A stretch of 20,379 bases of DNA from IMG/VR virus record IMGVR_UViG_2706794690_000015; one strand, written 5' to 3'. Shown piece after piece: positions 14,958 to 19,955 of this stretch. Positions within the stretch are counted from its first letter, which is position 1. Every line of letters begins with the position of its first letter. The notes beneath the pieces were generated by a model. The model did no database searches and was not told the DNA's origin. It worked only from the letters and a program-made list of their open reading frames with translations. The translations under genes were made by a program, and so were the position numbers. This DNA comes from a virus (taxonomy: Duplodnaviria; Heunggongvirae; Uroviricota; Caudoviricetes).

Positions 14958-15127
14958 NNNNNNNNNNNNNNNNNNNNNNNNNNNNNNNNNNNNNNNNNNN
15001 NNNNNNNNNNNNNNNNNNNNNNNNNNNNNNNNNNNNNNNNNNNNNNNNNNNNNNNNNNNNNNNNNNNNNNNNNNNNNNNNNNNNNNNNNNNNNNNNNNNN
15101 NNNNNNNNNNNNNNNNNNNNNNNNNNN
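14958..15127. other. Run of 170 N (gap or masked sequence)
   Basis: Literal n characters in the sequence. Confidence 1.
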
Positions 15128-16236: not shown

Positions 16237-16526
16237 TGGTGAATTTACGTAAAGCGGCTAAAGGCCAGATGTGCCAGATCAGAATCCCTGGCTACTGCAA
16301 TCACAATCCCGAAACCTCTGTGCTGGCGCATTACAGGCTGGCGGGGACGTGCGGAACAGCGACAAAACCACATGATATGCAGGCGGCGATAGCCTGTAGC
16401 TCATGCCACGATCTAATCGACGGGCGGGTAAAAACCAGCGATTACACCAAAGAAGAATTGCGCCTGATGCATGCTGAAGGGGTTTTTCGCACACAAGAAA
16501 TCTGGAGAAAGAAAGGTCATTTATGA
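16236..16526 (+). CDS. YbcO-like (DUF1364) putative zinc-binding nuclease, 96 aa
   Basis: ATG overlaps the upstream stop (TAATG). Cys/His-rich (CQIRIPGYCNHNPETSVLAH, CSSCHDL); resembles DLP12 YbcO. Confidence 0.65.
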   Translation: MVNLRKAAKGQMCQIRIPGYCNHNPETSVLAHYRLAGTCGTATKPHDMQAAIACSSCHDLIDGRVKTSDYTKEELRLMHAEGVFRTQEIWRKKGHL

Positions 16527-17065
16527 TTTACCCAACGAATACAGGAAAAAGCGGAGAACACCTTCGCCTCACCACGCTGGAAAGTGTCTGGATTCAGGGA
16601 AAACTACGTATGTGGGGGCGCTGGTCGTATATTGGCGGTGGCAGGTCAGGGAATATGTTCAATCAGTTGTTGGCATCCAAAAAACTGACGAAAACAGCCA
16701 TTAATGAAGCCCTGCGCAGAATGAAAAAAGCGGGAATAGAGAAAGCTGAGCTGGAAGCGTTTTTGCGAGAGATGATCAACGGCAAGCAAAAGAGCTGGCT
16801 GGCGCATTGTACTGATGCAGAGGCGTTATGTATTGATCGAGTCATAAGTGAGGTGCTGGCAGAGCATCCAGGATTGATTTGCATTCTCCGGCAACGCTAT
16901 GAAGGGCGGGGGATGACTAAGCGCAAAATGGCTGAATTGCTAAATGATGCACACCCAGAGTGGTGTTTTAGCACATGCGAAAAACGGATTGCTAATTGGT
17001 TAGCTGTTGCTGAGTATGCCCTATATATTCCCATGCGTGAATCATTTGCTGAGAAAATGGCTTGA
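16523..17065 (+). CDS. Late-gene antiterminator Q-like protein, 180 aa
   Basis: Last gene before a strong hairpin and the lysis cassette. N-terminal W-G-x-W region (LRMWGRWSYIGGG) resembles the Q family typified by DLP12 QuuD. Family call from memory. Confidence 0.6.
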   Translation: MIYPTNTGKSGEHLRLTTLESVWIQGKLRMWGRWSYIGGGRSGNMFNQLLASKKLTKTAINEALRRMKKAGIEKAELEAFLREMINGKQKSWLAHCTDAEALCIDRVISEVLAEHPGLICILRQRYEGRGMTKRKMAELLNDAHPEWCFSTCEKRIANWLAVAEYALYIPMRESFAEKMA

Positions 17066-17142
17066 TTTCTTACGTATAAACTGCTTCAATTTTGCTATGC
17101 TTCGCAAAGCTGTATCGCGAGGCGGATTGCAGACATGGACAT

Positions 17143-17175
17143 CGTAAAAAAACCGCTTAATGCGGTTTTTTTACG
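17143..17175. terminator. Perfect palindrome A7-CCGC-TTAAT-GCGG-T7, candidate bidirectional terminator (tR-prime-like)
   Basis: cgtaaaaaaaccgcttaatgcggtttttttacg, about 80 nt after the Q-like stop. Confidence 0.5.
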
Positions 17176-17494
17176 TCAGGAAAGCAGGGGAGAATGCTGC
17201 TAGTTGGGCAACTGGTCTTTCTGCTCCAAATTATAACAGAGACCAGTTATAGTTTCGGTGCTGTGTTTTTTTTACAATATTGTGATAACACATTGCTGGC
17301 GGGAGTTTTGATATTTCTTGGCAGGGGCTGATGATGCGTTATCCTGATGTCGTCAACTCATATAAAATGAGATGAGAGATCATTGCAGGGTGGTTTGTAA
17401 TTCGCTGTTTAGCGGGACAATATGTTGTCTGATACAAGACACCCGACGCCTCAGATTACTATAATAAAGACGAAGCATCCTTTGTATTGACCAA

Positions 17495-17518
17495 CCGCCT
17501 GTTTAGGCGGTTCTTTTT
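17495..17518 (+). terminator. Candidate rho-independent terminator
   Basis: CCGCCT-GTTT-AGGCGG followed by TTCTTTTT. Confidence 0.45.
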
Positions 17519-18050
17519 GGGCTGGTTTATTGTATGCCAAATGATTATTAAAAAGGTTGTGTTAATAACAAGATCCGAAATAATATGCCTGCATATTTTT
17601 ATCTTGCTTATATTCTGCATATTGTGCATAGCAGGCTCATCCCTGCAATCAAAACTGTATGATGAGTATTTTTTGTTTTCCTTTTTTCCAGTCATCTGAT
17701 GATGACCTGCTTCTTTTTAATCCGGATCGACATCAGTTTTTTAAGATAATTCCTGCGAGTTATATGCATAAATGCCACAAACTCCGCATTTTATGTGGTT
17801 GGGAGTTGCCGGGCGCGCAGTGAGTTTGCTAAGAAAACTCCTGCATGGTGAATCCCCCTGTGCGGTGGGGTGATACCATTAACCTTTTCTGTCGCCGACA
17901 GGTATCACGAACATTTTGTTCACCGGGAGGCACCCGGCACCATGCACTTCAATAGATTCTCTCCACATTATGGATATTCTTTCAGAATATCCCACGCAGA
18001 CTTTGTGTAAATGTTAACAAATGTGCGTTTTATTTGATCTGATTCGCTGT

Positions 18051-18080
18051 TTGAGCGTCCAAAACAACGGTATATATAAT
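18051..18080 (+). promoter_or_regulatory. Candidate sigma-70 promoter for the first TolA-like lipoprotein gene
   Basis: TTGAGC (18051-18056), 18-nt spacer, TATAAT (18075-18080); GAGGAAAA RBS then ATG 18110. Confidence 0.5.
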
Positions 18081-18109
18081 CCTTTACTATATGACATATG
18101 TGAGGAAAA

Positions 18110-18538
18110 ATGGGTTTTCGTAGCGCATCAATTCTTACGTTGATTATTAGTGGGATTATTATCGGGTGCACTGATGCTGTATCGACAAATTATCATGACC
18201 GTACATCATATTACTCCGATAAAGCAATAGAGACACAGTATGTGAGTTCATCTGAACGTACTTCTGATGTTAGTGAGGATATCCGTCTGTATGCCCATCA
18301 AATCAAGAGCGCCATCGAAAAACAGTTCGGGGATGCGAGTAAGTATTCAGGAAAAGAGTGTACACTGAGAATGCATATGGCCCCGAATGGCCTTCTACTG
18401 GAGGTTAAAAGAGAAAGTGGAGACCTCGATTTATGTCGTGAAGCGATGAATGCGATAAAGAATGCTGATATACCTGCCCCCCCTTCGCCGGAAGTATATA
18501 AAGTATTTCAAAATGGGGTGCTGGATTTTAAACCCTGA
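18110..18538 (+). CDS. Lipoprotein with TolA C-terminal (domain III)-like domain, 142 aa
   Basis: Signal peptide with lipobox IIGC. C-terminal ~80 aa (YAHQIKSAIEKQFGDASKYSGKECTLRMHMAPNGLLLEVKRESGDLDLCREAMNAIKNADIPAPPSPEVYKVFQNGVLDFKP) closely parallels the TolA C-terminus as I recall it (...PSQAVYEVFKNAPLDFKP). Confidence 0.7.
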   Translation: MGFRSASILTLIISGIIIGCTDAVSTNYHDRTSYYSDKAIETQYVSSSERTSDVSEDIRLYAHQIKSAIEKQFGDASKYSGKECTLRMHMAPNGLLLEVKRESGDLDLCREAMNAIKNADIPAPPSPEVYKVFQNGVLDFKP

Positions 18539-18688: not shown

Positions 18689-19084
18689 GTGGGATTAAAG
18701 AAAATCGTTATGTTGACTTTTTGGGTCGGTTTTGTTGCGGGATGCACACCTTTACACCCTTCAGATTGCCACAAAACTACTGCTACAGGTAGTTGCAGTT
18801 CAGGACGCTGGGATGATCAGGATGAATGGGGGGCGCAAGCGCGGGGAATCAGAGCTGCAATTAATGCCAAACTTGATGAGCCGCATAACTGGAAAGGGAA
18901 AAAATGCAGGTTGCATATGGAATTCTCTCAGGATGGCACGGCGTTAAAAATATCTACCAGTAACGGTGATAAAGCCTATTGCGAAGCGATAAAGTCCGCA
19001 GCTCATAAAGCCAAATTTCCGGCCTTCAACAATCCGGAAGTCTACAGAGATTTTCAGAAATCTGGCTTTGACATGCGAGGTTAG
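18689..19084 (+). CDS. Second TolA-domain-III-like lipoprotein (diverged paralogue), 131 aa, GTG start
   Basis: GAGGAG RBS; signal peptide MGLKKIVMLTFWVGFVAGC (lipobox VAGC). Shares GKxCxLxM...C.EA...A...PA...PEVY..FQ skeleton with the upstream gene. Confidence 0.7.
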   Translation: MGLKKIVMLTFWVGFVAGCTPLHPSDCHKTTATGSCSSGRWDDQDEWGAQARGIRAAINAKLDEPHNWKGKKCRLHMEFSQDGTALKISTSNGDKAYCEAIKSAAHKAKFPAFNNPEVYRDFQKSGFDMRG

Positions 19085-19717: not shown

Positions 19718-19955
19718 NNNNNNNNNNNNNNNNNNNNNNNNNNNNNNNNNNNNNNNNNNNNNNNNNNNNNNNNNNNNNNNNNNNNNNNNNNNNNNNNNNN
19801 NNNNNNNNNNNNNNNNNNNNNNNNNNNNNNNNNNNNNNNNNNNNNNNNNNNNNNNNNNNNNNNNNNNNNNNNNNNNNNNNNNNNNNNNNNNNNNNNNNNN
19901 NNNNNNNNNNNNNNNNNNNNNNNNNNNNNNNNNNNNNNNNNNNNNNNNNNNNNNN
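19718..19955. other. Run of 238 N (gap or masked sequence) covering endolysin C-terminus and Rz start
   Basis: Literal n characters; too short to hold the expected remainder of the endolysin plus the Rz start, so probably not length-preserving. Confidence 1.

Follow-up and report, generated by a model that had tools for sequence, protein, structure and literature searches.

Gene organization around the gap

The 20,379-nucleotide (nt) stretch of viral DNA analysed here (IMG/VR record IMGVR_UViG_2706794690_000015; hereafter the window) is, as judged from an RNA marker and from its gene order, a Rac-type lambdoid prophage, and the region of interest is a 1,044-bp gap, at positions 17066-18109, that follows a Q-like antiterminator gene of the DUF1133 family. 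At the right end the genes run in the order DUF1367, YbcO/DUF1364, DUF1133, the gap, two tolA-like genes, a phage-21-type holin, lysozyme and Rz, and in identical loci of Escherichia coli (E. coli) the next gene after Rz is trkG, as in Rac. The RNA marker is a full-length RalA antitoxin small RNA (sRNA) at 1557-1735 (Rfam RF02694, 225 bits), which marks the element as Rac-type. The gap itself is likely to be the leader of the prophage late operon, assembled from modules into an ordinary lambdoid late-control region. All of its elements are of known kinds: a Q-type late cassette, intrinsic terminators, a mosaic relic and a member of an Rfam sRNA family.

At least 80% of the gap is carried by 446 of 5,426 complete E. 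coli genomes, with at least 99% identity among the matches listed, and neither those matches nor the identical locus that was inspected have any annotation from the Prokaryotic Genome Annotation Pipeline within it. An earlier sequence-only reading had described the region as AT-rich, with two terminators, long inverted repeats and no convincing open reading frame (ORF). The AT-richness is real but mild, the GC content being 40.6% against 44.6% for the window, and is marked only over 17500-17800 (33-36%). Both terminators and both inverted repeats that it had listed are present, their coordinates borne out by the arms, the folds and a terminator scan. Perfect inverted repeats spanning at most 120 nt are also more frequent in the gap than in dinucleotide shuffles, with eight of at least 8 bp (1.83 +/- 1.37 in shuffles) and five of at least 9 bp (0.54 +/- 0.71); since about two 8-bp repeats are expected by chance, a single 8-bp repeat proves nothing. 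The gap is a mosaic, with module boundaries at about 17124, 17226, 17437 and 17919.

The Q-like gene is followed by a putative late promoter and terminator

The Q-like gene and the left part of the gap carry the following features, in which PR' denotes the late promoter and tR' its terminator.

16523-17065, + strand: Q-like antiterminator gene, DUF1133 (Pfam, PDB sequence search, Foldseek)
17062-17067, + strand: putative PR' -35 element TTGATT, overlapping the Q stop codon (conserved spacing in relatives)
17085-17090, + strand: putative PR' -10 element TTCAAT, non-canonical (conserved spacing in relatives)
17096-17101, + strand: -10-like hexamer TATGCT (conservation); the conserved initial transcribed block runs to 17124
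17143-17175, no strand assigned: tR'-like intrinsic terminator, bidirectional, A7-CCGC, loop, GCGG-U7 (inverted repeat and folding)

The protein encoded at 16523-17065 belongs to DUF1133 (Pfam, 2.5e-107) and barely reaches the cut-off of the Q21 family (PF06530, 26.1 bits against 26). Its best sequence match in the PDB is Q21, in a collinear alignment that is not significant (E 0.27). When its AlphaFold model was compared with the PDB by Foldseek, matches 1-10 were all Q21 chains (probability 1.00, TMt 0.58-0.64) and match 11 had E above 1, leaving Q21 as the sole structural neighbour; the model has a predicted local distance difference test score (pLDDT) of 55.5 and was built from a shallow alignment at 75-93% identity. 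From this modelled fold we propose, with moderate confidence, that the DUF1133 protein is a divergent, distant Q21-type antiterminator. DUF1133 proteins would then appear to form a divergent Q21-type branch with a recognisable conserved loading region. Our literature search found no paper on DUF1133, nor any tying a Rac-type Q to a late promoter, and the assignment to the Q21 fold, together with the conserved loading region, goes slightly beyond the literature.

We aligned the DNA that lies 3' of the DUF1133 gene in 31 unique variants of the E. coli type and in two Salmonella prophages, together with that of phage Rac-SA53 and of phages of Klebsiella, Providencia and Edwardsiella, the Q proteins of the last three being 31-77% identical to that of the window. 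All of them except the Klebsiella phage share one layout: a TTGnnn that overlaps or adjoins the Q stop codon, 16-17 nt, a second hexamer, 5 nt, TAnGCT, a conserved block, 20-35 variable nt and an intrinsic terminator. The distance of 16-17 nt between TTGnnn and the second hexamer holds in every variant, even where the flanks differ, and the same positions are canonical in two of the relatives (TTGACT-16-TATAGT in Providencia and TTGACA-16-TAGTAT in Edwardsiella), while the second hexamer of Rac-SA53 reads TATCTT. In the window the spacer is 17 nt long and contains the conserved ACGyATAAACTGC, a candidate Q-binding element. A consensus promoter scan passed over TTCAAT because of the T at position 2 of the -10, and this non-canonical hexamer is also why the sequence-only reading, which had expected a late promoter near 17066-17140, could find no clean -35/-10 pair. 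Its expectation is supported by the comparison, with the promoter beginning 4 nt further left, at 17062.

Downstream of the putative promoter, TAnGCT varies at its third base only (TAT, TAC or TAA) among the E. coli, Salmonella, Providencia and Edwardsiella variants, and always keeps A2 and T6, the positions that sigma-70 recognises most strongly. TATGCT in the window, placed at or close to the predicted start site, is a candidate for the sigma-dependent pause element that Q cassettes carry, by the description given for Q21 (bioRxiv 10.1101/651190). The conserved block 3' of it, GCTTCGCAAAGCTGTATCGCGAGGCG, is recognisable in Providencia and Edwardsiella. Within the block at 17096-17124, GCTTCGCAAAGCTGTATCGCG is invariant by construction, having served as the search anchor, while the TAnGCT and AGGCG(A/G) that flank it are near-invariant as well. 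Of this layout the Klebsiella relative retains the second hexamer (TTGAAT), a TAnGCT-like TAGGCT and the terminator, but not the conserved downstream block. An initial assignment of TATGCT as the true -10 was ranked below TTCAAT after comparison with the distant relatives.

The terminator has arms of 14 nt (17143-17156 and 17162-17175) that are 100% complementary around a 5-nt loop, and it folds strongly on both strands (-19.7 kcal/mol, z -7.8 on the + strand; -19.5 kcal/mol, z -6.5 on the - strand). Relatives have at this position, 20-35 nt beyond the conserved block, at least five terminator hairpins of unrelated sequence, a diversity that points to selection on what the hairpin does and not on its sequence. 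The promoter-plus-terminator layout predicts that, in the absence of Q, a short RNA of about 75 nt (approximately 17097-17172) would be made and ended by this hairpin, in line with the earlier suggestion that a short PR'-like RNA was plausible here. Overall, we consider it likely, from the comparative evidence, that 17062-17175 comprises PR', a Q-loading site and tR'. Weak Rfam matches at 17088-17233 (Thr_leader, AgrB, OrzO-P and others) owe their alignment mostly to the terminator hairpin and were set aside as noise.

The middle of the gap holds a relic of a tRNA-associated module

Between the first terminator and the right-hand part of the gap we identified the following features.

17210-17218 and 17240-17248, no strand assigned: 9-bp inverted repeat AACTGGTCT / AGACCAGTT (lineage-specific)
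17225-17258, + strand: small hairpin H1 (AAUUAUAAC / GUUAUAGUU) followed by a T-run (fold z -3.9)
17271-17356, + strand: decayed copy of a long hairpin, H2, with about 31 predicted pairs (covariation; the copies in relatives follow a tRNA array)
17436-17465, + strand: promoter-like AAGACA-18-TATAAT (10 of 12 positions in the scan)
17493-17518, + strand: second intrinsic terminator, t2, AACCGCC, loop, GGCGGTT, CTTTTT (scan and inverted repeat)
17519-17805, + strand: AT-rich non-coding spacer (33-36% GC)

The interval 17177-17812 is nearly confined to this lineage, and a search of the phage collection for distant DNA matches to it returned none. No tRNA or tmRNA was detected in the window by ARAGORN or Rfam. 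Relatives that share the DUF1133 Q gene and the PR' block have two to four tRNA genes right after tR' (Ile, Arg, Thr, Gly and others; loci L008:1885-2194, L006:2841-2994 and L010:2108-2417), which suggests that the window has lost such an array. The sequence-only reading had pointed out that Shiga toxin (Stx)-type phages carry tRNAs and small RNAs at this place; the window has a small RNA here, the STnc100 copy described below, and no tRNA. The best relative, in E. coli M6, has the same Q module followed by four tRNAs and then by homologues of 17302-17356, of 17437-17732 (83% identical) and of 17733-18200 (94% identical). In other prophages, with different Q genes, a homologue of 17226-17396 comes directly after the tRNA arrays. 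By this comparison, 17224-17436 is the decaying relic of a post-tRNA module whose own tRNAs are gone.

The two hairpins of this module were assessed in an alignment of 14 sequences that represent only four or five lineages. H1 corresponds in relatives to the inner part of the terminator that lies 3' of the tRNA array, and three of its pairs covary (AU:7/GC:7, AU:8/GC:6 and UA:8/CG:5). Across the alignment, 95.5% of cells are paired in the predicted structure, against 34-55% when the partners are slid, and 13 pairs show compensatory change, against 2-8 with slid partners. Because the pairing includes many G-U pairs, the H1/H2 structure was assigned to the + strand. While H2 is very stable in the relatives (-31 to -42 kcal/mol, z -4.7 to -7.9), the copy in the window no longer forms it (minimum free energy -21.3, z -0.9). 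Hairpins of this type, covarying, on the + strand and about 30-35 bp long, follow tRNA arrays in several lambdoid prophages (L008:2322-2413, L010:2541-2632 and L009:2304-2396); they have no Rfam match, and a role as an RNase III processing site is plausible.

The sequence-only reading had also listed a 9-bp and an 8-bp inverted repeat. The 9-bp repeat has its right arm within H1, in the loop and the 3' arm, and its left arm in sequence without a homologue in relatives, and the + strand fold is no better than shuffles (z -0.9), so that we rejected the repeat as a structural element; nor is it conserved. The 8-bp repeat turns out to be an internal helix of STnc100 and not a separate feature. Promoter-like sites at 17308-17345 were likewise rejected, as they are not conserved.

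The terminator t2 has 8-nt arms at 17493-17500 and 17505-17512, followed by CTTTTTGG, and is terminator-like by scan. The L215/L202 variant of the segment and 09A19 keep its stem but have other loops and a longer run of U; the M6 copy has one stem mismatch. It stands 27 nt beyond the TATAAT at 17460-17465, the best consensus promoter match in the region, and the two could in principle delimit an independent sRNA gene of about 45-50 nt, a unit that is 93% identical in M6 and has a predicted 5' hairpin. The fold of such an RNA is no better than shuffles (z -1.3) and it has no Rfam match. Moreover, the L215/L202 variant loses the TATAAT and yet keeps the terminator, and the -35 of the promoter-like sequence sits on a mosaic junction. 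We consider an sRNA gene at this position quite unlikely, and the promoter-like sequence is probably incidental. The spacer that follows t2 is 76-83% identical to the corresponding sequences of M6 and 09A19, which have about 55 nt that are not found here.

Coding potential was assessed by comparing six-frame translations of the gap with Pfam and PHROGs, which gave nothing better than E 0.018. The gap does contain mechanical ORFs of up to 78 amino acids (aa), and in sister prophages DUF3927 small membrane-protein genes occupy this place, so that a small or decayed protein gene might be sought in, for example, a hydrophobic ORF of 52-70 aa ending at 17699. However, no ORF is common to the homologues in the window, M6 and 09A19, in which frame, start and length all differ, and none is annotated in the identical loci inspected, among the 446 genomes that have the region. 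A hidden gene is on this evidence extremely unlikely, and the candidate decayed gene was rejected. The absence of a convincing ORF that the sequence-only reading reported is thus confirmed, and the decayed protein-coding gene that would have spoken against its account did not emerge from the homology searches.

A further alternative is that everything beyond the first terminator is a recombination scar without function, the repeats having arisen by chance or as junction artefacts. Such an origin would sit well with the clear mosaic structure, the lineage-specific 9-bp repeat, the decayed H2 and the lack of conservation of the TATAAT at 17460. It is harder to square with inverted repeats that exceed the shuffles four- to ninefold, or with the fact that t2, H1, the PR' block and STnc100 are each conserved or covarying across diverged phages, and we regard it as unlikely.

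The right part of the gap contains an STnc100-family RNA

The remaining features lie between the spacer and the first tolA-like gene.

17806-17835, + strand: degenerate STnc100 promoter, TTGCCG-18-TAAGAA (matching at 7 of 12 bases, the -10 lacking its last T)
17813-17999, + strand: STnc100-family RNA (Rfam RF02076, 86.6 bits against a gathering score of 47, E 1e-18, model positions 1-206)
17972-17992, + strand: AT-rich 3' hairpin without a U-tract, at the position of the family terminator (-9.5 kcal/mol, z -4.5)
18051-18109, + strand: promoter-like TTGAGC-18-TATAAT and ribosome-binding site of the tolA-like gene, whose ATG is at 18110 (promoter scan)

The presence of this RNA bears out the earlier remark that some other structured RNA was plausible in the region. 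Its core occupies 17842-17946 and is closed by TGCATGGTG / CACCATGCA (arms 17842-17850 and 17938-17946); inside it, the 8-bp repeat GTGATACC / GGTATCAC (17870-17877 and 17901-17908) forms the internal helix mentioned above. The whole copy folds at -63.8 kcal/mol (z -4.1), and it retains the closing stem of the family as well as its two invariant hairpins, CCCC..GGGG and CCGGG-AGGCA-CCCGG.

For comparison we collected 99 unique STnc100 cores from viral contigs and annotated loci, gathered by a pattern in the first conserved box, whose invariance is thus partly by construction. The closing stem covaries across these cores (AU:51/GC:42 and CG:45/UA:20 at two positions), and the two hairpins are sequence-invariant across the family. 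In 94 of the 99 cores (L016-L135 and L002/L008/L009), a central hairpin has a 6-11-nt loop complementary to the stretch directly 3' of the first invariant hairpin. The two helices covary strongly, with 45 and 42 distinct sequence pairs, and the helix length averages 6.6, against 4.1 for shuffled loops. This central pairing, read from complementarity and covariation as a pseudoknot or as alternative helices, is absent from the Rfam model. The window copy instead has nested hairpins, a form found in only three of the 99 cores (the window, M6 and copy 1 of 09A19).

Family members also differ in their flanks. A terminator-like hairpin lies within 110 nt downstream in 67 of 96 members, mostly about 15-25 nt after the core, whereas the window copy has no intrinsic terminator within 110 nt downstream. 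In 33 of 98 members a sigma-70-like -10 stands just upstream of the core, placed to start transcription at the closing stem. The copies in a locus are always on one strand and can form tandem arrays of up to four (L009:2810-3925, L008:2936-4293 and viral loci), in which neighbours are mostly 255-490 nt apart and at most 3.3 kb. Same-strand tRNAs lie within 1.5 kb upstream of 59 of 134 copies (44%), and in Salmonella loci L222-L224 the STnc100 element abuts the first tRNA of an array. At another locus, a partial "hypothetical protein" pseudogene in RefSeq (L002:2910-3050, - strand) runs across an STnc100 copy, and this call is probably spurious, arising from the repeated RNA element.

With its weak promoter and its lack of a U-tract terminator, the window copy is probably transcribed mainly on a longer RNA, either the late transcript or a tolA-like mRNA of which it forms the 5' part, and on its sequence context it should run on into the tolA-like gene. 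A possible though less favoured explanation is that the window copy does not act in trans, serving instead in cis as the 5' leader of the tolA-like gene, or that it is decaying and has no function. Besides the promoter and the missing terminator, this would account for the rare nested hairpins in place of the pseudoknot and for the 3' third of STnc100 being fused, in many prophages, to the sequence that precedes the tolA-like gene; 17919-18109 recurs with 99-100% identity ahead of tolA-like genes in prophages of other types, phage mEp460 included. On the other hand, the copy has an intact closing stem and both invariant hairpins, its bit score clearly exceeds the threshold, and the nested-hairpin variant is kept at 90-94% identity in two diverged contexts. 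Canonical cores in phages of the mEp460 type also lie upstream of tolA without a terminator, so that the arrangement is not in itself decay.

A more speculative proposal, which we hold to be doubtful, is that the STnc100 core is a compact folded RNA that acts by its shape, for example as a protein-binding or tRNA-associated element of lambdoid late operons. The idea draws on the covarying closing stem, the two invariant hairpins, the covarying pseudoknot in most members and the tandem arrays that often follow tRNAs. If it were true, the window copy, which has neither pseudoknot nor terminator, would be a distinct leader form controlling the tolA-like gene. Neither the pseudoknot nor the tandem, tRNA-linked distribution is in published descriptions or in Rfam, and neither fits simply with an sRNA that acts by seed pairing.

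The tolA-like genes themselves are a tandem pair (18110-18538 and 18689-19084) whose products have a TolA C-terminal domain (Pfam, 2.4e-23 and 1.3e-14) and are predicted to be lipoproteins, with a Cys after a hydrophobic N-terminus. They sit between Q and the holin, the usual place of morons, and their products might interfere with Tol-dependent phage or colicin entry. The window also contains runs of N at 14958-15127 and 19718-19955 (408 bases in total), the second of which splits the lysozyme gene and makes the ORFs there unreadable.

A model for transcription of the late leader

Taken together, these features suggest how the gap might work. A constitutive late promoter right after Q would start transcription at about 17097-17099. 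Without Q, RNA polymerase would pause at TATGCT and stop at 17143-17175, giving the short RNA predicted above, akin to lambda 6S RNA, StxS and IsrK. With Q, on induction of the prophage, the DUF1133 protein would load at its site and the polymerase would pass the terminators at 17143-17175 and 17493-17518 and then cross STnc100, the two tolA-like genes and the holin-endolysin-Rz lysis genes. Between the two terminators it would traverse the decayed piece of the post-tRNA module, the array itself being absent. The STnc100 copy would most likely be made inside the late transcript or at the 5' end of the tolA-like mRNA, from which processing would release it, if at all.

Several points weigh against this model. 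At position 2, where an A is near-invariant, the proposed -10 (TTCAAT) has a T, and TATGCT might alternatively serve as the -10 in the E. coli lineage, with a start at about 17108. Close relatives are more than 99% identical, so that most conservation within the lineage carries no information. The Q21-like fold of the DUF1133 protein depends on a low-confidence model, and the STnc100 copy, a structural outlier, might be inert. Finally, the isrK family (RF01394) matches 17099-17172 at only 21.6 bits against a gathering score of 50; membership was accordingly rejected, and with a match so far below threshold the resemblance to IsrK is a parallel of layout and not homology. About 1 kb that was blank in 446 complete E. 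coli genomes can now be labelled with a putative late promoter and terminator, a second terminator, a tRNA-module relic and an STnc100 RNA.

Comparison with known late-control systems

In the PR'-qut-tR' cassette of lambda, which yields 6S RNA, and in the StxS cassettes of Stx phages, the promoter stands right after Q, the transcript opens with a -10-like element and meets a terminator inside about 80 nt, and the late genes lie beyond it. The window has the same order, with a predicted promoter after Q, a -10-like element, a terminator and late genes. It differs in that its Q comes from another family, the putative -35 overlaps the Q stop codon and the putative -10 is non-canonical. In phage Rac-SA53 (L216:2038-3531), the pertussis-like toxin genes eplBA follow a DUF1133 Q, much as stx follows Q in Stx phages. 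Compared with Q of phage 21 (Q21, PF06530; PDB 6p18 and 6jny), the DUF1133 protein is about 16% identical, has 180 aa, against 162 aa for Q21, and belongs to a separate Pfam family, and a direct repeat of 8-bp Q-binding subsites was not identified.

The IsrK/AntQ system offers a second parallel. At true isrK loci, which we located by pattern, the gene for a 139-aa PF06530 protein has its stop codon within TTGACA, and a 17-nt spacer leads from there to TAATTT. The start of IsrK, its 5' hairpin of 7 bp and the terminator come next, with a Bro-N anti-repressor gene downstream of them. This arrangement agrees with the published AntQ, IsrK and AnrP of Salmonella prophage Gifsy-1 (PMC4825925), where a Rho-independent terminator is read through into the downstream genes (PMC4825925). 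The likeness to the window consists of a Q21-family Q gene, a -35 over the Q stop codon (TTGACA in the isrK locus L226:2570-2740; TTGATT in the window, 17055-17175), a short RNA, predicted in the case of the window, and a terminator. The window differs in its downstream genes, which include neither orf45 nor an anti-repressor gene that a short RNA could activate. BLASTP found no similarity between the Q of the isrK locus and that of the window, and Salmonella DUF1133 loci gave no isrK match at E of 0.01 or below, in a search too large to show a weak match.

The closest counterparts of the right part of the gap are members of the STnc100 family, among them PasD of enteropathogenic E. coli (EPEC) and EcOnc27/sRNA103 of enterohaemorrhagic E. 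coli (EHEC). The literature presents STnc100 as a prophage sRNA that occurs in multiple copies, and relates it to PasD of EPEC (bioRxiv 10.64898/2026.05.13.724894). Of the eleven copies in EHEC strain EDL933, ten have transcriptome reads and one was confirmed on a Northern blot (PMC5331693). A copy situated directly 3' of stx2 (PMC12370729) overlaps EcOnc27, which is Hfq-bound (PMC12711010). The window copy occupies the same place as these RNAs, on the late strand in the interval between Q and the lysis genes, in a family that often follows tRNAs.

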